DNA from: a virus
Lineage: Duplodnaviria > Caudoviricetes
DNA length: 26,154 nucleotides
Reading direction: 5' to 3' (one strand)
IMG/VR virus record: IMGVR_UViG_3300028586_000768
Span: 1 to 26,154 of that record
This document shows positions 5,268 to 25,546 of this stretch, in pieces. A program made the position numbers and the translations under genes. The first letter of the stretch is position 1; the number at the start of each line of letters is the position of its first letter. The notes beneath the pieces are model-generated. The model was not told the origin of the DNA, did not search any database, and worked only from the letters and a program-made list of their open reading frames with translations.

Positions 5268-5971
5268 CGCGTGTACCCCGGGAGGTAGGAGGCGAACAAG
5301 TTGGTGCCGTCGCAGATGAACGAAAACATAGTGCGGCGGTTAGCACCCAGGTCGATCTGTGGCTGGATGTCGTCGGGGAAGACGAAGACCGGGTTGAAGT
5401 CCAGCGTCCGGCTACCTGTCGCATCCTGCTTCACGAACATGACGTAGTTGCCCGGAGTGAGGTTGCTTGGCGCGCCCATGGTGCGATTTCCCACCAAAGT
5501 CAGCGTCGGGACTTGGGTCACGCTGGCATCCCACGCGATCGGCGTCGCCGACGAGCCGGTGTCAACCAGGTTGCCGGCCGCCGGCGGGACAACCGAGATG
5601 TTCTTCCAGTTTGTGGTATCCAGCTCTGGTCGCGTGGTACTGGTACTTGCCGCCGTCCGTTTCCGGTAGGTATAAAGCGAGATCGGGTCGACAACTGGGG
5701 CACCCAGGGCATAGGACTGCCCTGACACCCACAGCGCGGCGCCCGCAGCCTGCGCCGCGCTGGCGGCAGCGGCGGCCGACTGATTGGCCGCCAGTGCCAG
5801 GGCATTCACGTCCACGGCCAGCGCGTTGGCCTGGTCGGAGAATTCGTCGATGCTGACCTGCAAGGGCTGCATCTTGCCCATCATGTCATCGGCCTGATCT
5901 TCGAAGTTCGGGTCGTCGCGGCTCGGCGACACACCCAGCTTCGGGAGTACTACGGTAATTTGTGCTGGCAT
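5264..5971 (-). CDS. Minor tail/fibre protein (235 aa)
   Basis: Coupled ORF; N-terminal PSRDDPNF, Ala-rich helix, WVSGQSYALG motif and C-terminal VKQDATGSRTL beta domain typical of fibre proteins. Confidence 0.7.
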   Translation of the reverse strand: MPAQITVVLPKLGVSPSRDDPNFEDQADDMMGKMQPLQVSIDEFSDQANALAVDVNALALAANQSAAAAASAAQAAGAALWVSGQSYALGAPVVDPISLYTYRKRTAASTSTTRPELDTTNWKNISVVPPAAGNLVDTGSSATPIAWDASVTQVPTLTLVGNRTMGAPSNLTPGNYVMFVKQDATGSRTLDFNPVFVFPDDIQPQIDLGANRRTMFSFICDGTNLFASYLPGYTR

Positions 5972-9800: not shown

Positions 9801-12737
9801 CCGCTCTGCGCCCTCCAGCAGCTTGTACCCCTTGCTGCCGTCGGAGAAAAACCCCTTGGCGGCGCTGGCCATGTCGCCATAACCTTGCACCCGGTTCTTG
9901 ATCTCGCGCTCGCCAAGCTCGGTAATAGTCTTCAGGTACGCAACTTCGTTGAAGTCCTTCTGGCCTCGGGCCTTTTCAGCATTTTTGCGAGCCTCAGTAA
10001 TTTCAGCCTGACGCTTGCTGTAGCTGTCCATGTTCGCCATCAGCTTCGACAGCGCGTCGCCGCCGGCGCCGAACGCCTCACGCAGCGCTTCGCCGAACGT
10101 CTGGGCCTTGGATGGGTCGAGGAACTTGTTGAGCTCCTCAAGCGCTTTCTTGGAGGTGTCGTCTGCCTCGGCTTTCGTGGCGCCAACCTGCTTGCCCGTC
10201 GCCAGCTTTCGCAACTCGGCTGCTTGCTGACGGTAGACCTCTACCAGCTCGTGTTCAGGCTTGACTGCGGCGATCGATGCAGCCGTCTGTTCCTTCTGTG
10301 CCGCCGCAGCAAGCAACCGCTTCGCAGCGAGATCGGCAACTTCAATCTTGCCCAAACCGATCTCCGCATTCGCCAGCACTTGCGCATCGACCTGGTCTTT
10401 GAGCGATTTAAGCTCGGCCTCAGCGCTCTGGATGCCCTTACGGTGATTGTCTTCATTGTCTTGGAAGCGGCGGAACTGCGCGGTTGCAAGGTCGTTTTCG
10501 AGTTGGGCTGCTCGACTAACTTTTTCGGCCTGGATCTCCGCAAGATCCCTTTCTACTTGAGCTACCTCAGTCTGCCCATCCCTAAGCTTCCGTGCTAACG
10601 CTAGCTGACGTTGTGCCTTTTTCTCCTTCTCATCTAGAAGGCCAAGCTCCCGCTCCGCCGCCGCCCGCAGCGCTTCGTCCTCACCAATCTCACCGAGAGC
10701 TTTGCGGGTAGCGATGCGCCCTAATTCTCGCTGCAGCATCAGATCGGCAACGCCATCAAGCTTGTGTAGGCCGGCGATACTGGCTTCGATTGATTCGTTG
10801 TTCGCTGCAGCGCGTGCAGCGGCGATGCGCTCGTCGATTTCCTTCTGGGCCACCCCAGCAGCCAGGCCCTCGCGAGTGATTCTCGTTACAGTATTCTCAA
10901 GTTTGGCGGCTTTGCTCAGATACTGGTCGGCGCCATCGTTCCAGGTCTGCAGAGTCTTTTGCATCTGCTGTCGAACGGCTTCCTGCTGCGAATCCCACTC
11001 CTCCTTATTGATCTTGTAGACAAGCTCGATTTCTTCCCGCTGCAGTGCTTTTTTGTCCGCCTGGTTTAATGCACGTTGGGTTGCCCCGGAGAAGCCAGAG
11101 CGATCCCCAAGAGCCATGGGTGACGGGGCTTTGTCGGCATCAGCGAGCGCAGCGCGAACTTCTTCCAGCCGCTCTTTTGGCGTTTGAGTGCGACCCACTC
11201 CAAGGAATTCGTCCCATGCTGATTTAGCCGCTCCAGTGGCGCCGCGCCATGCACGTTCGACGAGCCCCAAATTCTCACGCATTTTGCCTGTGCGCTCAGT
11301 GAACGCTGCGACGTATGCCTTCTGCGCCATTTCGCCGGCCTCTTCGGCCCTGCCTTGCTCTTCCAATGCCTTGATCTGCTCGAGCGTAGTCCCGGTCAGG
11401 TAGCGGTATGCATCGTTCAGTCGGCGGCTGGCCTCGACTGGAGAGTTGCCCAACTCAGCCAAATCGCTGACAGTCGTTTCGATGCTCTGGCCGACATCCT
11501 TTTCCATCTGAACTGCCAGGAGTCCGAAATCGCGAAGATTTTTAGCGCCGACTTGCCCACTGCCAGCGAGCGCAGCGACTGCTTCTGAAGCCTTCGCTTG
11601 CGTACCGGTGGTCTTGCTGATTTCCCGAGCGAGGTCTGCTAATTGGTTTCGGCTGGTCCCTGCGACATTGCCGGACAGGATGATGGCACGGTTGTACGCG
11701 TCAGCCTCTCTCGACCCTTGGTAGTAGGCGGCAGTAAGTGCAACCGCCGCCGCGGCAGCAAGGGTGTACGGGTTAATGAGTTTCATCAGCTCGTTACCCA
11801 AGGCTTGCGCAGCCGGCCGGATGCCGCCGAATGTATCCCTCAGTTGTCCGCCTTGCTGGATCAACACTGTGAGCGGATCCATCCCGCCCTGCAGAGAGGT
11901 GATCATATCGGTCACTTGCGCTGGGACTTGGCGCAACGCGTTGGCGGTTTCACCTGCCGACATGCCGGTGTCGTTGAAGGCCGACTCCGTCTCGCGAAGA
12001 CGCTGGATCAAGGGCCCCGCCTGCTCGGAAATCCCTAACTGCGCCGCCTGCATCTCGAGCAGCTGCGAGCGGGTCTTGCCGATCGAATTGACTTGATTCG
12101 TCAGATTCGAAATGAAGTTATCGCGGCCGGCTTGCGCCTGCGCAGCTTCACGTTGAGCCTGAGCTTCAGCGCGTGCGGCATCGGCAATCTGCTCATGAGC
12201 GGCGCGCATGTTCTGGAGCTGCAGGATCAGATGCGATGCTTCTTGAGCGGCGCCTGCCTGGGCAGCACGGTAGCGAAGCACTTCGTCCGTCGACTTCCCA
12301 TACAGAGCAATCTGCTCACGCAGGCTCGCTACGAAAGCCTCCTTAGTCGCTTGTGCTTGGGCCAGCTCGCGCTCTGCGTCTGCTTGCGCGCGCGCTGACT
12401 CGGCAGCCTGATTCTGGGCCACTTCGACTTCGCGTAGTCGATTTAGGTAAGGGGCGAGAGAAGCGGGATCGGCGAGCTTTTGACTTCCGATCTGCTCAAA
12501 ATAAGCGGCCGTGCTGCGCCCCCCAGCCTCCATTGCAGCAGTGGTGCGCTGGATTGCACCGATGATGGTTCGCTGGGCAGCGTCGATCGTACGCCCGGAA
12601 CTGGAGGCCCGCTCCCCAGCCTGAGAAACCGCTTGACCCGCTCGCTGTGCCGCATCAACAGCCGGCCTGAGACCTGCCTCGACGCCGGACGCATCTGCAA
12701 CCACACGGATTGTTGCCTCGTTGACAATTTCGCTCAT
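6885..12737 (-). CDS. Tail tape measure protein (1950 aa)
   Basis: Very long Ala-rich helical ORF; lambda-TMP-like motif RQVPAQVTDMITSLQGGMDPLTVLIQQGGQLRDTFGG; likely start MSEIVNE at 12737. Confidence 0.95.
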   Translation of the reverse strand: MSEIVNEATIRVVADASGVEAGLRPAVDAAQRAGQAVSQAGERASSSGRTIDAAQRTIIGAIQRTTAAMEAGGRSTAAYFEQIGSQKLADPASLAPYLNRLREVEVAQNQAAESARAQADAERELAQAQATKEAFVASLREQIALYGKSTDEVLRYRAAQAGAAQEASHLILQLQNMRAAHEQIADAARAEAQAQREAAQAQAGRDNFISNLTNQVNSIGKTRSQLLEMQAAQLGISEQAGPLIQRLRETESAFNDTGMSAGETANALRQVPAQVTDMITSLQGGMDPLTVLIQQGGQLRDTFGGIRPAAQALGNELMKLINPYTLAAAAAVALTAAYYQGSREADAYNRAIILSGNVAGTSRNQLADLAREISKTTGTQAKASEAVAALAGSGQVGAKNLRDFGLLAVQMEKDVGQSIETTVSDLAELGNSPVEASRRLNDAYRYLTGTTLEQIKALEEQGRAEEAGEMAQKAYVAAFTERTGKMRENLGLVERAWRGATGAAKSAWDEFLGVGRTQTPKERLEEVRAALADADKAPSPMALGDRSGFSGATQRALNQADKKALQREEIELVYKINKEEWDSQQEAVRQQMQKTLQTWNDGADQYLSKAAKLENTVTRITREGLAAGVAQKEIDERIAAARAAANNESIEASIAGLHKLDGVADLMLQRELGRIATRKALGEIGEDEALRAAAERELGLLDEKEKKAQRQLALARKLRDGQTEVAQVERDLAEIQAEKVSRAAQLENDLATAQFRRFQDNEDNHRKGIQSAEAELKSLKDQVDAQVLANAEIGLGKIEVADLAAKRLLAAAAQKEQTAASIAAVKPEHELVEVYRQQAAELRKLATGKQVGATKAEADDTSKKALEELNKFLDPSKAQTFGEALREAFGAGGDALSKLMANMDSYSKRQAEITEARKNAEKARGQKDFNEVAYLKTITELGEREIKNRVQGYGDMASAAKGFFSDGSKGYKLLEGAERAFRAMELASQMESLYTHLFVTGAKATGTAAGQAVETGAVVAGEAARNVAKVPGVFMSFMSAMGPWGAAAAAVAVAAVLGGAFSGGGGVSVSESRQKSQGTGTVLGSDAKSESIAKSLEMIENATFQGLSVSTDMLSQLRSIDSNLTNFSTLVVQTTGIKGSLADGLESGSGGFWGKLGNSIFGGKTSVEDTGFSMNPIAFADVFRGWVDSYEYADTKKSGGWFSSDKYRTQIEGLGEEGNRQIALVLTSLYGAVESAGGMLGLAGKDFTDKLNGFVVDIGMVSLKGLSGEEIEKEIQAVFSKVGDQLALYSLDGLKDFQKSGEGYLETLTRIATGYQTVTVVADSMGMSFNAIGVGSIAARQRLIDLAGGLDAFKESADSFMSDFYTDKERADALRARIQPTLDKFGIQTGADDSMDQFRDVVKSLRLETAAGAQDFATLMQIMPAFKQIADIDAALFEDQVELARSRRDLEIQIMELTGDKVSALAATRALELAETDGSLHALLERVYGLQDEAAALELAGSKRQLEAQILGLLGDKAGQLAITRELELAGMDPALRALRQRYFALQDEAAAAEAANSLLTLQAQIYELTGDKAGAAAVLAQQHANALKELDPALRTATEQLWGLQAAAKGVEQVKAIAAALVTGVESAFTALQSVVGREKALLQDVANKHKALADALRGTLDSMSVSGQERQDRSAAQAQIAAALAIAKASGTLPDVDSLKGALSIVGKDSASLFSTQEEYLRDFYATQGDIADLAGLTDKTLSVEEQSIKRLDDILANAQQQVNALKGLDTTMLTLVDVMRDFDRVLGSAQADPVASAGGTLTKLYRELLGRAPDAGGLEFYKARLAEGVTLEQIRNDILQSLEYKQLKGIPGFAGGGFFGGGYRVVGENGPELETTGPARIFNASETSGMLARMARPSEDYAALLAEVRVLRTAFGGLFPVLYQVAKNTGRGANSLEKMDRREEVNA

Positions 12738-12749
12738 CGTCCGCCCATG

Positions 12750-12802
12750 AAAAAAGCCGCCCGGAGGCGGCTCTAAATGCAAAAGCCAGCTGTACGCTGG
12801 CT
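12750..12802 (-). terminator. Two tandem intrinsic terminators after the moron gene
   Basis: AGCCAGC-GTACA-GCTGGCT-TTT (12802-12781) and AGCCGCC-TCCG-GGCGGCT-TTTTT (12772-12750). Confidence 0.75.
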
Positions 12803-12811
12803 CAGTTGTGT

Positions 12812-13174
12812 CTACTCGCCCTTAACGCATAAGGGATCTGGTTTTGCTTTGAATCTTCGCTGAAGCGCATCCTCATAGGCCCCGGCAGCAGCGATGCAGC
12901 TGCTGATTGCTCGCCCATATGCAGCGACTTGCTCTTGCTGCTTTTCGGTAGAAGCGCCTTGAGCCAGGCTCTTCCGTATGAAATCTCGGGTTACTTGAGA
13001 GTAGCCCTCATTCCGGATGTGCCGCATTCTGGCTGAGCAATAAGCCTTGTCAAGCTCGCGCTTGCCCGCCTCTTTCAACATGAGATATTCCGGCTTGTCG
13101 CAAAAGACCTCATCTCCAGCCAGCACTGGAACGCTGGCGCCTCCGAGGGCCATAGCCAAGAACAGGTATCGCAT
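12812..13174 (-). CDS. Moron: secreted/periplasmic helical protein with 4 Cys (120 aa)
   Basis: GGAGG RBS before ATG 13174; signal peptide MRYLFLAMALGGASVPVLA; own downstream terminators; lower GC. Confidence 0.75.
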   Translation of the reverse strand: MRYLFLAMALGGASVPVLAGDEVFCDKPEYLMLKEAGKRELDKAYCSARMRHIRNEGYSQVTRDFIRKSLAQGASTEKQQEQVAAYGRAISSCIAAAGAYEDALQRRFKAKPDPLCVKGE

Positions 13175-13224
13175 CGCATCCTCCAAGTTTTGAGGGTGCA
13201 ATGGTACACCAGCCCGAAAGAGCA

Positions 13225-13257
13225 ACACGAAAAGCCCCGTTGAGGGGCTTCCCGCGT
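13225..13257 (-). terminator. 14-bp hairpin / intrinsic terminator closing the repeat RNA
   Basis: - strand ACGCGGGAAGCCCC-TCAAC-GGGGCTTTTCGTGT; fully paired with three G.U pairs on this strand only. Confidence 0.75.
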
Positions 13258-13262
13258 ACTAC

Positions 13263-13322
13263 CCATGCCGTGCCAAACCGCAGCACACCTTAGCTCACCC
13301 TGCTCAGCCAAACCAAACGATG
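13263..13322 (-). repeat. Pentamer array 1 (GGY-NN)
   Basis: - strand CGT-TT GGT-TT GGC-TG AGC-AG GGT-GA GCT-AA GGT-GT GCT-GC GGT-TT GGC-AC GGC-AT GGG. Confidence 0.9.
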
Positions 13323-13374
13323 CTTACCGCATCAGACAGCACCCTCGTTGAAGATGCTGGCTGCTGTTGTCAGC

Positions 13375-13434
13375 CCATGTCTTACCTCGCCAAACCCGGC
13401 CTTAGCTCACCAGGCCTTACCCAAGCCCGCCGTC
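13375..13434 (-). repeat. Pentamer array 2 (GGY-NN)
   Basis: - strand GGC-GG GCT-TG GGT-AA GGC-CT GGT-GA GCT-AA GGC-CG GGT-TT GGC-GA GGT-AA GAC-AT GGG. Confidence 0.9.
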
Positions 13435-13499
13435 AAGCGAACGCTCCGCAGGGACTCGATCCCCAAGAAAACCACCAAGAGCTGACTTCTTGATGACCC

Positions 13500-13524
13500 A
13501 TGGGGTAGCGCCCAGCTACCCCAT
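13500..13524. other. Perfect 10-bp inverted repeat
   Basis: ATGGGGTAGC-GCCCA-GCTACCCCAT; no U-tract on either side. Confidence 0.7.
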
Positions 13525-13570
13525 CCTGCCGGTCTACGACACGCAGATGCGCTTGCAATCGTGCTAGCAC

Positions 13571-13599
13571 TTGCAATAGTCCCAAATTGGGACTAAGAT
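13571..13599 (+). promoter_or_regulatory. higBA promoter with overlapping operator palindrome
   Basis: TTGCAA-17 nt-TAAGAT; palindrome TAGTCCCAA-A-TTGGGACTA (13577-13595) fills the spacer, as expected for antitoxin autorepression. Confidence 0.8.
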
Positions 13600-13608
13600 G
13601 TGCGAACC

Positions 13609-13908
13609 ATGCGCGTAATCTCACTCAAAACCATCCGCGAATTCTATGAGCAACATGACTATGCAGACTCGAAAGAGCCGCTGTTGACTTGGTACAGGCA
13701 TGCACTCAACGCTACGTGGCCCACACCAGCAGATATCAAGGCTGATTTTGGCACTGCAAGCATCCTGAAAGAAGGTCGCGTGGTCTTTAACATCCACGGC
13801 AACAAGTACCGTTTAGTTATTTGGTTCAACTATCCGTATGGAATTGCTTATGTGAAGTTTGTTGGGACGCATGAGCAATACGACGCTATCGATGCTCAAA
13901 CCATTTAA
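13609..13908 (+). CDS. higB: HigB family mRNA interferase toxin (type II TA)
   Basis: MRVIS...W.TPADIKADFGTASIL...RVVFNIHGNKYRLV...VKFVGTHEQYD signature; toxin-first order. Confidence 0.93.
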   Translation: MRVISLKTIREFYEQHDYADSKEPLLTWYRHALNATWPTPADIKADFGTASILKEGRVVFNIHGNKYRLVIWFNYPYGIAYVKFVGTHEQYDAIDAQTI

Positions 13909-13918
13909 GGACACAATC

Positions 13919-14290
13919 ATGAACATCAAACCAATACGCACTGAAGCGGACTATCAAGAAATGCTTCGAAGGGTTGAGTCGCTCATGACGGCCGAGTTTG
14001 GCACGCCTGAGGGAGATGAACTAGATATTTTAGCGACACTTGTTCAAGCATACGAATCGAAGCATTATCCCCTAGAAGCTGCAGATCCAATCGAAGCTAT
14101 CAAATTTGAGATGGAGCGAACTGGCCTGACGCCGCGAGACCTTGAGCCAATGATTGGCAGACTAAATCGCGTCTATGAAGTCCTTTCCAGAACTCGTCCG
14201 CTCACACTTCCAATGATTTGGAGACTACACAAAGGACTTGGCATCCCGGCCGAGGCTTTGATTCAGCCCCCACGAGAACTCGTTGCCTGA
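13919..14290 (+). CDS. higA: HigA family antitoxin (HTH)
   Basis: IKPIRTEADY...GDELDILATLVQAYE...DPIEAIKFEME...RPLTLPMIWRLHKGLGIPAEALI; TAAGGA RBS. Confidence 0.93.
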   Translation: MNIKPIRTEADYQEMLRRVESLMTAEFGTPEGDELDILATLVQAYESKHYPLEAADPIEAIKFEMERTGLTPRDLEPMIGRLNRVYEVLSRTRPLTLPMIWRLHKGLGIPAEALIQPPRELVA

Positions 14291-14332
14291 TATTTCTCGC
14301 TGTTGCTAAGGGAGCGGCAATACTCCCTTTTC

Positions 14333-14641
14333 CTATTCCTCATCTCGATCGTTCATCGCACCGATAGCGGACGCCTCCATCACTTGGATGGACTCCTCAA
14401 GATCTTCGTACTCGTCCCGGGTGAGCTGCATGCGGTCCATCTTGTGGTGCAGCGGGGTGTAGTCCAGGCCGATCACGCCCATGCCGGCGCCGCGCCACTG
14501 CGTGCGCATATACGCGAAGAGGTCGTATGCCGGAATGTTTTCCGGCCAGATCTCAACGTCTTCATGCGGGTAATCCTCCGGCTTGAAGCCGCCGGCCTCC
14601 ATCTCCGCCAGGTCCTTCTTCGAAAGACCCGGCTCGTACAT
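14333..14641 (-). CDS. Tail assembly chaperone C-terminal part (gpT-like, DUF1799-like), probably made as a frameshift fusion
   Basis: EIWPEN...MRTQWR...IGLDY motif; in the -1 frame relative to the upstream chaperone. Confidence 0.85.
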   Translation of the reverse strand: MYEPGLSKKDLAEMEAGGFKPEDYPHEDVEIWPENIPAYDLFAYMRTQWRGAGMGVIGLDYTPLHHKMDRMQLTRDEYEDLEESIQVMEASAIGAMNDRDEE

Positions 14642-14658
14642 GGCGCCCGCGATCCGTC

Positions 14659-15111
14659 TTAGTTTCCCAAGCGGCCTTCGTTGATCGCAGCGCGGTAGTC
14701 GTCCTTCATCGCTTCGGCCATCGCAGGGAGGGTGTCGACCAGCTCGGCGACCGCATCCTGGTCGAACTCGGCGTCCAGGTTCCAGCCCTTGACGATCTTC
14801 ATGATGAAGTCGACGGCGACGGCCGACTGACGCTTGACGATTTCGGTCTGCGTGATGGTGAATTCGGGGATCGGGTCACCCGTTTCCTTTGCCTTCTCGA
14901 CGGCAGCCTTGAAGCGCTCGATTTCGACGTTCGCCTCGTCCTTCAGGGTCGCCTGCAGCTGATCGGTCAGTTCGGCCAGCTCGGTGCGCGTGCGGTACTT
15001 GTATTCGACTTCCATCGAGCCGGTCGTGCCGTCCAGCATCGCGGCCTTGATGGTCTTCTTGAAGCTCTCCGGGCGCTTGCCCAGGACGATTTTTTTGACG
15101 GTGTTTGCCAT
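14659..15111 (-). CDS. Tail assembly chaperone (gpG-like)
   Basis: Follows the major tail gene; IVKGWNLD..F motif; ends RLGN on a slippery site. Confidence 0.88.
   Translation of the reverse strand: MANTVKKIVLGKRPESFKKTIKAAMLDGTTGSMEVEYKYRTRTELAELTDQLQATLKDEANVEIERFKAAVEKAKETGDPIPEFTITQTEIVKRQSAVAVDFIMKIVKGWNLDAEFDQDAVAELVDTLPAMAEAMKDDYRAAINEGRLGN
14662..14668 (-). other. -1 programmed ribosomal frameshift heptamer G GGA AAC
   Basis: X XXY YYZ pattern immediately before TAA; the -1 frame (CTA AGA CGG ATC GCG GGC GCC ATG) is open into 14641..14333. Confidence 0.85.
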
Positions 15112-15205
15112 GATTTTTGTCTTTCAGAGGGGTGGGAATAAAAAGACCGCGAGGTGCGACCACGCGGCGGAAAGGCCAGCCCGAAGGGCCAGCCGGCAAA
15201 ACGGA

Positions 15206-15838
15206 TTAGTAGCGGACGACCTTGTTCTGCAGCGAGAAGGTCGCTTTCACGGCCATCACGTTGCCCTTGGACAGGGTCGGCGAAGGGTTGAAGCTGCAGT
15301 AGCCGGCGTAGAGCAGGACGTCACCGCCCGGCATGACCGCCTTCAGGCAGGTCAGCTTCACCCCGTCGGAAATCGCCTGCAGGGCGGCGTGGTGCGGCAG
15401 CGATTTGTCGTCAGCGATGGTCAGGGCGACGCTGGTCGCGCTGAAACCGTCTGGCAGCATCACGGGAGTGTCGCTGTCCAGCAGCTGCACCTCGACTGTT
15501 TTGCCCTCGCCGCCGGAAACGTCCGCCGCGGTGACACCCACGACCGGCACCCAGGTGGTGACCTTGCGCACCGAGCCGATGCCGGCGCCGGCCGGGAACA
15601 GGTTGACGTCGGTGGTGTCCAGTCCTTCCAGCACGAAGTTGGTACCGGTCGGCGACTTCACGCGGAAGACGCGGCCGTTTGCCTTGCTCCAGCCGCCGGT
15701 GTATTCGACGAAGTCGCCGGCGGCGAGGGTGTTGGTCGCGGTGCAGACGGTTTCCGCAGCATTGGTTGCGGCCGTGATCGACACGGCGGTTGCGAAGACG
15801 GACGCGATCGCGAACGCCAGGTTGTTTGGCAGTTTCAT
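15206..15838 (-). CDS. Major tail (tube) protein
   Basis: 210 aa between tail terminator and chaperones; ITAATNAAETV, GDFVEYTGGWSKANGRVFRV, SGGEGK motifs typical of tail tube proteins. Confidence 0.9.
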   Translation of the reverse strand: MKLPNNLAFAIASVFATAVSITAATNAAETVCTATNTLAAGDFVEYTGGWSKANGRVFRVKSPTGTNFVLEGLDTTDVNLFPAGAGIGSVRKVTTWVPVVGVTAADVSGGEGKTVEVQLLDSDTPVMLPDGFSATSVALTIADDKSLPHHAALQAISDGVKLTCLKAVMPGGDVLLYAGYCSFNPSPTLSKGNVMAVKATFSLQNKVVRY

Positions 15839-15878
15839 CAAGGGCCTTTCAGGTAAAGAGCCCGGAAGCCGGGCAAAG

Positions 15879-16277: not shown

Positions 16278-16792
16278 GAACTGGCGTTCCTTACTAGTTG
16301 CTCGGCGAGGGTTTTCGTCATCACGTCGACCGCCTCATGCTTTTTGCTCTCGTATCCGGGGCGCATGAAGGGGTAGGCCGGCACGCGGGAGTTCCCATAT
16401 TCGAGTTCCGCAGCGCGACGGTGGGCGGCCCAGCCGATTGTTCGACCAGTCTTCGGGCTGACCCGCTTATTTTTCGGTACGAACTTGTGCCCTTCCTCGA
16501 CCCATCGCCAGTAGTAGGCACCTGGGCTCGATGAGGTGCCGCTCCGGACCGTAACGATGTACACCTGCCGCCGGCCGCCATCGGACTCCTCTTCGAGTCG
16601 CTTGACGATGATATTGTCGAACAGCATGCCGGTCTCTTTGTTGGCCAGCGCGTTCTGCTTCACCTGGTCGCGGAAGACCTCGGCGCCGGCGAAGCCGACT
16701 GTACGAAGCATCGACTCATCCACCGAGGCAATCACCTGCTCCGCCGTCTGTTCGATGGTCGCGATGAGGTCAGTAGAGTCGAAATCGATCAT
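16274..16792 (-). CDS. HK97 gp10-like tail morphogenesis protein
   Basis: AYYWRWVEEGH, LEYGNSRVPAYPFMRPGYE; synteny. Confidence 0.85.
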   Translation of the reverse strand: MIDFDSTDLIATIEQTAEQVIASVDESMLRTVGFAGAEVFRDQVKQNALANKETGMLFDNIIVKRLEEESDGGRRQVYIVTVRSGTSSSPGAYYWRWVEEGHKFVPKNKRVSPKTGRTIGWAAHRRAAELEYGNSRVPAYPFMRPGYESKKHEAVDVMTKTLAEQLVRNASS

Positions 16793-24305: not shown

Positions 24306-25546
24306 GCAAGGATTCCTTCGATCTCGGCGACCGCTTTCGGGTCGGCCTTGGGCATCTGGTCCGGCAGCGGCTTGGCCGCGTCGACCATGTTCAACGGCTG
24401 CAAATAGGTGTCGCCGCCCTTGATCGGCGGCAGATTCTCCAGGCGCCGGATGTCGTTCACCGACAGCCAGCCCCATTGACGGGCGACAGCGTAGGCGTCA
24501 TAGCGCGACTTCTGGTCCCCGCGCAGCAGGCCGGAAACGTTGAATTCGATGTAATACTCGTCACGCTCGCTCGGAAGCAGCAGGTCGCGCATCATTGCCT
24601 GCTCGTGCCGCTTGATCCACGGAAGCAGCGTGTAGATCACAAACTGGATGGCTTGGTGCTCGATGTTCGAGAAGGTCGCCTTGTCCAGTTCGCCGATCAT
24701 GTGCGGCGGCACCTTGTAGATACGAGCGATGTCGAGATTGGTGAGCTTCAGGGCCGGGATCAGCTCCGCATCGACGTTGGTCATCGAGAACGGACGGAAC
24801 GTCATCCCCTCCTGCAGCATTGCTACGCGCTTGGCGTTACCCGTCCCGCCGTACATCTGCTGCCAGCGGTCGGTGATGCGGTCAATGACGCCCTGATCCT
24901 TGATCGGCGCCGACTCGCGCGGGCGCTCAATCACGCCCGACAGGGCAGTCCCGTTCAGGAAAGACTTGCCGGCGTACTGCTGGATCGCCTGGGCATAGCC
25001 GATGCTGTTCGCATGCAGCATGATCGGCGAGACGCCGACGTAGTTATTCAAGCTCCACCAGCGCACGTGGTGCACCATGCGCTGCGGGATAGGCTCTTGG
25101 CCGTCAATCTGGTAGTACGGACGGAGATCAGACCCTTTCATCACGACCACCGACTGGGCCGGAACTGGGTAGAGCCCGGTGACGGTTCCGTCGGAGTCGC
25201 GGCCGATAATGCTGTACGAATTGCCGCGCGCGCCGGCCGACATCTGGCTACCCTCGCGGAACTCCAGCGGCGTCTGCCACTCATTGGGAGCGTATGCCAG
25301 GATCTTGTACAGCGGATGATCCCGCGCTGGCTCTCGCTGGCCATTATCCGTGCGCCGGAACAGCTCAAGCGGTAGCTGGGCGATGCTTTCCGCCAGCAGC
25401 GTCACGCAGTTCTGCAACGCGGTCAGCGACAAAGCTGACTCGACCGTCACCAGCGGACCAGCATCGGATCGAGCGCCTCCCAGGCCCGAGAGCCAGCCGC
25501 CGCCTCCGGTGGCGAGCTGCGAGCTGAAAAACTGTTTGGTGAACAT
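24302..25546 (-). CDS. Portal protein, HK97 family
   Basis: CVTLLAESIAQLPL, PNEWQT, GVSPI, IARIYKVPPHMIG, TFSNIEHQ, GLLRGD, NDIRRLENLPPI. Confidence 0.96.
   Translation of the reverse strand: MFTKQFFSSQLATGGGGWLSGLGGARSDAGPLVTVESALSLTALQNCVTLLAESIAQLPLELFRRTDNGQREPARDHPLYKILAYAPNEWQTPLEFREGSQMSAGARGNSYSIIGRDSDGTVTGLYPVPAQSVVVMKGSDLRPYYQIDGQEPIPQRMVHHVRWWSLNNYVGVSPIMLHANSIGYAQAIQQYAGKSFLNGTALSGVIERPRESAPIKDQGVIDRITDRWQQMYGGTGNAKRVAMLQEGMTFRPFSMTNVDAELIPALKLTNLDIARIYKVPPHMIGELDKATFSNIEHQAIQFVIYTLLPWIKRHEQAMMRDLLLPSERDEYYIEFNVSGLLRGDQKSRYDAYAVARQWGWLSVNDIRRLENLPPIKGGDTYLQPLNMVDAAKPLPDQMPKADPKAVAEIEGILA

Follow-up and report, generated by a model that had tools for sequence, protein, structure and literature searches.

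A two-guide VIPR cassette with no vipr in the partial record of a siphovirus related to Massilia prophages, with one guide probably aimed at the tail-chaperone gene of a sibling phage

VIPR guide RNAs and the cassette in the tail module

VIPR guide RNAs (vrRNAs) consist of 9 to 16 tandem pentamers, each made of a GGY scaffold and an NN dinucleotide. According to the available portions of two preprints (bioRxiv 10.64898/2026.04.26.720920 and 10.64898/2026.04.26.720927), Vipr protomers bind the GGY units and polymerise along them, the NN pairs recognise either strand of double-stranded DNA and pass over every third base, and the outcome is repression of transcription. A third preprint (bioRxiv 10.64898/2026.10.15.759431, hereafter the solo-vrRNA study), as far as its available text goes, describes satellites whose solo guides redirect the Vipr of a helper, and counts 346 VIPR-null phages with one or two solo guides. 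VIPR, solo guides, and the targeting of DNA on both strands are therefore already published in these sources, and the array described here is not in itself new.

The window (i.e., the whole stretch of DNA that was analysed, 26,154 nucleotides) belongs to the record IMGVR_UViG_3300028586_000768, a provirus that is 46% complete and leaves ~13 kb on either side of the arrays in a 26-kb contig. By Pfam assignment, it covers the head-tail module of a temperate siphovirus whose structural genes run on the - strand; its nearest named relatives are Massilia prophages (77-78% identity in the tail assembly chaperone). The genes for the tail tube (15206..15841, -; PF08813), the tail assembly chaperone (14659..15111, -; PF08748), and a DUF1799 protein (14333..14641, -; PF08809) are followed by the stretch 12773-14332, which lies between the DUF1799 gene (its left neighbour in gene order) and the tape-measure gene. 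We regard this stretch as an insert because close relatives align up to ~14340 and resume from ~12770. It contains a HigB-family toxin gene on the + strand (13609..13908; PF09907), a likely HigA-type antitoxin gene (13919..14290, +; assigned from its position, with a PHROG transcriptional regulator match and no Pfam match), two pentamer arrays, a terminator-like hairpin, and a 118-aa accessory ORF past the terminator (12812..13168, -; no Pfam or PHROG family). A palindrome seen in the sequence upstream of higB (13577..13595) is likely to be its operator, and similar palindromes occur in several family genomes. The 118-aa ORF is 37% identical to the ORF that follows the array of the related locus L299 and has homologs in 12 further loci; these occupy the same slot with or without arrays, just before the tape-measure genes (at least 13 loci). 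By eye, its start looks signal-peptide-like.

Array 2 (13382..13431, -) comprises ten units with the NN string GG TG AA CT GA AA CG TT GA AA. Read from 13431 to 13382, its letters are ggcGG gctTG ggtAA ggcCT ggtGA gctAA ggcCG ggtTT ggcGA ggtAA, followed by gacAT GGG; eight of the ten scaffolds are GGY and two are GCT. The initial annotation, which had described this array and its NN string, identified a real feature: with a pentamer periodicity score of 9.2, it is the strongest 5-periodic stretch in the window, ahead of array 1 (8.2) and the best stretch elsewhere (6.2). A conserved, structured 3' tail (13320..13381, -; beginning gacATGGG) follows array 2 and leads into array 1, the second guide, also of ten units (13270..13319, -; NN string TT TT TG AG GA AA GT GC TT AC). 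The cassette ends with a further tail start (ggcATGGGTAG) and a terminator-like hairpin (13225..13269, -), a layout shared with the VIPR-encoding relatives L299, L301, and G009. The ATGGG that follows either array marks the start of the conserved tail, which leaves ten informative units per guide. The tail of vrRNA 2 aligns with those of L299, L301, and G009 and is 90% identical to that of L301; in a consensus hairpin over six tails, computed with nested folds only, 4 of 21 pairs have changed on both sides.

Both arrays fit the VIPR RNAs of bioRxiv 10.64898/2026.04.26.720920 in these sequence features. As far as that preprint's available portion describes the type II arrays of SUSP1 and a Pseudomonas fulva prophage, the likeness extends to the GGY/NN units, about ten units per guide, the structured 3' tail, and the wobble skip, whereas the cognate type II cassettes include vipr and a small vap gene, neither of which was found in this record. 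Within the published scheme, and from its sequence, array 2 is a real VIPR guide and apparently a solo one, of the kind already described. No fitting Rfam family exists for the arrays, Tandem Repeats Finder missed them, GenBank phages gave no match, and no promoter-like site driving the array was found. Directly upstream of array 2, at 13440-13545 (-), three consecutive hairpins are predicted (z -2.1; no Rfam match), which could represent a degenerate tail or a processing element.

Contigs of a sequencing run from which this DNA may come, over 12700-14465, 14436-14700, 14671-15233, and 15210-15336 show no differences from the record at depths of 49-72; they agree with the assembly as evidence that is not independent of it, with array and target on no single contig. 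Two short RNA-run contigs match the higBA-type genes (13618-14036) without differences, for which DNA carry-over is possible. The RNA run, consisting of contigs only, covers higBA alone, and its absence over the arrays is evidence neither way.

Matches of the two guides to the tail module

Array 1 serves as a control for the code. Its site near the 3' end of the tail tube gene (15222..15250, +) is matched at 20/20 positions, antisense to the gene and with the third codon base skipped. Nine units score 18/18 against a shuffle maximum of 16 (20/22 when the AT of the tail is counted), and the 18/18 obtained at a skip of one base falls to at most 13/18 at skips of 0, 2, or 3. The site is intact at 20/20 in 12 of 55 related loci, as nine distinct sequences differing at the skipped bases alone. 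Reading the dinucleotides with one base skipped between them, as the initial annotation did, is correct and follows the published VIPR code. Array 1 shows no escape from its self-match.

The partial array-2 site in the chaperone gene (14759..14787, -; encoding GWNLDAEFDQ) was reproduced as initially annotated: 15/20, sense to the gene, in codon register, and with codon position 3 skipped. It lies 435 bp from the array-1 site, close to the ~450 bp first given. The chance rate of 0.2 per window claimed for such a match is too high, at an actual ~0.1. Scores of at least 15/20 arose somewhere in the window in 87 of 1,000 base shuffles and 106 of 1,000 unit-order shuffles of array 2, so that the window match alone is at chance level and not significant. 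At skips of 0, 2, and 3, array 2 reaches at most 14/20.

An exhaustive scan of the window yielded no better site and one equal, at 25515..25543 (+; 15/20), which lies antisense over the opening codons of the portal gene and again skips the third base. Array 2 would then be aimed at the portal start, antisense like its sister guides, and this score rises to 17/22 if the AT of the tail is counted, a level reached by 13 and 7 of 1,000 shuffles. However, that AT belongs to the conserved tail start, and 15/20 is the most that any of 120 portal homologs could offer, most of them less. We consider this reading largely refuted and hardly credible as the target.

The case for the chaperone comes from the family. 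Across 57 related loci (708 kb), array 2 scores 16/20 or more in 22 and 15/20 or more in 45, counts that none of 3,000 shuffles reached. The test is inflated by the make-up of the pool, which was assembled through tail-tube homology, contains the chaperone in excess, and keeps near-duplicates. When the search was restricted to in-phase sites in five tail-module genes, a restriction chosen after the match had been seen and backed by the cognate guides, 7 of 2,000 shuffles reached 15. In 38 distinct sites, the matches at units 1, 2, 4, 5, and 8 hardly ever change, and the two residues that vary most are those read by units 6-7. The phage's own chaperone site matches at 75%, and those of its relatives at 80-85%. 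The best DNA alleles reach 17/20, in L372 (among 72 loci) and in one of five hits in 110 genus genomes; these contain eight full units, short of the 9-10 of 10 units that a database search had been predicted to find in chaperone genes. Even the best possible coding of 305 chaperone proteins would give 18/20, in one protein.

The shortfall lies in units 6-7. None of 300 chaperones has Arg, as unit 7 demands, and 144 have Pro; unit 6 calls for Lys or Asn, of which Lys occurs in two chaperones and Asn in none. Each of the two units is one base off common alleles. The proposal that the true target is a related phage's chaperone allele is supported at the family level, by the recurrence and shuffle tests, but the Lys/Asn-Arg residues predicted for that allele are essentially absent. 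The alternative proposal, escape by this phage, draws on a private Lys-to-Gln change at the tail-proximal unit 10, where the 38 distinct relative sites include Gln in none and Lys in 25. Because structures in the available portion of bioRxiv 10.64898/2026.04.26.720927 indicate that assembly starts near the 3' tail, this mismatch may matter. One private change is weak evidence for an escape, which is at most possible and fits ill with the perfect self-match of array 1.

Guides of cognate systems also point to the tail module. Five of ten guides from VIPR-encoding cassettes with this tail (G009, L299, L300, and L301) match tail-module genes (i.e., an HK97-gp10-like gene or the tail tube gene) beyond 200 shuffles, at 70-91%. 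Of the other guides with this tail, the six that reach significance all lie antisense, and array 2 would be the sole sense one; the one clear sense example, a guide of L239, comes from a more distant Vipr clade and was picked as a top match among 199 guides. No significant target was found in the pool for 5 of 13 guides tested, and none of the 199 unique parsed guides is similar to array 2 (best, 12/20). The inference, made from the opposite orientations of the two matches, that double-stranded DNA rather than mRNA is recognised agrees with what is published for VIPR, but the orientation argument is itself weak here because the array-2 site is imperfect.

Guides of relatives match further sites in this module. 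The HK97-gp10-like gene of the window is matched antisense by guides of L299 (22/26) and L301 (27/32 and 14/16) at 16368-16406, 16479-16525, and 16596-16618, and in sequence terms it looks like a target of these two systems. The window is a better match for the guides of L301 than L301 itself (27 vs 22 of 32 and 14 vs 13 of 16); self-avoidance in L301 is partial, the second guide still having an 81% self-match. Self-scores of the gp10-directed guides of L299 are uninformative, as that gene lies off the L299 contig. Guides of L239 and L096, from the more distant VIPR clade, match in sense orientation the GGQLxDMFG motif of relatives' tape-measure genes (18/20 and 21/24).

Array 2 may instead be aimed at something unrelated that has not been sampled, be it another phage, the absent half of the provirus, or a host decoy, with the chaperone match a coincidence. 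Roughly one in ten shuffles equals the window match, the residues demanded by units 6-7 are lacking in the chaperone family, and no other guide of its clade is sense. In addition, sites with no more than two mismatches (18-19/20) occur in 6 of 401 family genomes and none of the control, though in unrelated places. The exact pattern had no hits in viral contigs and four in metagenomes, all unrelated: three are copies of one eukaryote-like transcript, which we take to be a START-domain gene, and one stands beside insertion-sequence-like ORFs. A relaxed 18-base pattern gave one hit, in an unrelated phage ORF. With up to three mismatches allowed, there were five matches in the 110 genus genomes against nine in the control, and none in 2, 50, and 5 selected phage or host records, the 50 and 5 including vipr-encoding ones. 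Against vipr, vap, or vrRNA loci the best score was 16/20 in ~2 Mb, with none pointing to those genes, and no collection scanned contains a perfect phage site. The empty set of 50 and 5 records, the lack of anything recurrent among the genome and metagenome hits, and the recurrence test and tail-module nulls speak against coincidence, which we judge unlikely while giving it real weight. At the family level the chaperone match is likely to be meaningful and to mark a candidate target, and on these comparisons the chaperone family is probably what array 2 was directed at.

No vipr in the record, and the VIPR-encoding relatives

No match to vipr was obtained in this 46%-complete record at E values up to 10. 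The gene was likewise not found in the records or genomes of 48 tail-tube relatives, of which 4 are at least 90% complete (the positive control was detected), or in 110 genus genomes, given which a helper Vipr may be rare. A 91-base piece at depth 3 in the possible source run resembles the vipr of L301 and is too thin to show a helper. The cassette stands without vipr on its 26-kb contig, as in the same-contig rule of the solo-vrRNA study, with ~13 kb per side against the 20 kb of its other rule. Half of the provirus is missing, and vipr or a better array-2 site could be located there.

Where vipr is present, it sits next to the array. Genome G009 repeats the sequence following array 2 downstream of a gene for a 189-aa protein, which is Vipr (E value of 1.6e-45 to SUSP1 Vipr, PDB 36pp), and four viral contigs also contain that sequence, two of them apparently with the same cassette. 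In L299 and L301 the order is tail tube, chaperone, DUF1799, arc-like, antirepressor-like, vipr, vap, array, terminator, small ORF, and tape measure (gene families checked for L301). The window has the tail and the terminator region in common with both and the small ORF in common with L299, and, by synteny, its higBA-type pair occupies the place where these relatives hold the arc-like, antirepressor-like, vipr, and vap genes. This arrangement bears on the idea that vipr lies elsewhere in the phage and the guides throttle its own tail operon. The perfect self-site of array 1, the partial one of array 2, and the incompleteness of the record would suit such a role, but vipr-vap directly precedes the array in the cognate loci G009, L299, L300/L302, and L301, and the 48 relatives' records yielded no vipr, so we find self-regulation quite improbable.

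Accessory cassettes have a hot spot in the slot before the tape-measure gene. Array calling gave none in the first 56 related loci. In L375 (~5770-5850), and in near-identical form in L376 and L379, the slot contains a five-unit vrRNA remnant and a terminator with other accessory genes upstream and no vipr, an apparent second loss of VIPR. In L007 (8287-10900) it contains an arc-like gene, an antirepressor-like gene, and, by eye, an HNH-like ORF, with neither vipr nor array.

The apparently vipr-less state and what the locus offers

In our preferred reading, which we hold to be probable, array 2 is one guide of a two-guide VIPR cassette that lacks vipr in this record, and it was likely aimed at the chaperone gene of a sibling phage, of which this phage has a partial copy of the site. 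The aim would be the conserved GWNLD..FDK stretch of the sibling lineage's gene. As the origin of the cassette we propose a vipr-vap-array operon of the L299 and L301 type; the guides of those two loci likewise match the tail module of this lineage. The donor would have been a VIPR-encoding relative with guides aimed at these tail genes. The vipr-less form would be the one compatible with a perfect self-site, as the phage would escape autoimmunity without a Vipr of its own, while Vipr from a VIPR-encoding relative would be turned on tail genes (the tail tube gene of L301 matches array 1 at 18/20). The mismatches at units 6-7 may stem from an allele that has not been sampled or from drift of the guide away from an allele of the Glu/Ile/Lys-Pro type.

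Today, the cassette may be inert, a relic, or it may act as a trap, with incoming Vipr turned on the adjacent tail genes. As a relic, it would have arrived when recombination brought a rival's guides into the targeted lineage; the vipr-less form survived, the guides are decaying, and nothing is silenced at present, the target family still being the chaperone. Consistent with this are the higBA-type pair in place of vipr-vap, the five-unit remnant without vipr in the same slot of three loci, the lack of a promoter-like site, the failure to find vipr in the 48 relatives' records or the 110 genus genomes, and units 6-7 being one base from common alleles. Decay fits less well with a tail 90% identical to that of a VIPR-encoding phage, two arrays in register, and an array 1 that is still perfect, and solo guides function in trans in the available text of bioRxiv 10.64898/2026.10.15.759431. 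We regard the relic as a strong contender, a little short of an even chance. More tentatively, and rather improbably, the captured guides may exclude kin by hijacking the Vipr of an incoming VIPR-encoding relative and shutting its tail operon. They would be harmless while the phage is without Vipr and its late genes are off, and the shutdown would act at two adjacent tail genes on opposite strands.

Comparison with the published solo guides, within the available portions of these preprints, would place the locus among them and also sets it apart. The solo vrRNAs of VIPR-null phages and F5 satellites (759431) are one or two guides at the VIPR slot after loss of vipr-vap; this cassette resembles them and would likewise need Vipr in trans. 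Unlike them, it belongs to a siphovirus related to Massilia prophages, its guides match tail genes, and a higBA-type pair fills the gap; the solo guides described in that study are directed at vipr, at other vrRNAs, at satellites, or at host REP decoys, with lower self-matches than here. It also differs from type II VIPR in that its guides point to structural tail genes of the lineage that carries them. Preprint 720920 gives no self-hit of at least 80% for P. fulva-clade, type III, or type V guides, whereas one guide here has a perfect self-match. Perfect self-targets are not reported in the available portions of 720920, 759431, 720927, and 760802, although the supplementary tables of 759431 may list some, and Massilia is not mentioned in those of 759431 or in the 720920 supplement. 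The notable feature of the locus is this perfect self-match of the sister guide in an apparently VIPR-null context.

What the locus contributes is an apparent solo cassette, occurring in nature, whose carrier has a perfect target for it. Its VIPR-encoding relatives have guides that match the same tail module and match those guides less well themselves. The series of chaperone alleles (14-17 of 20) is a ready test of the mismatch tolerance of VIPR. The locus also makes it testable whether self-targeting forces the loss of vipr, and whether solo guides bring phages a gain in fitness, a question left open in the available text of bioRxiv 10.64898/2026.10.15.759431.
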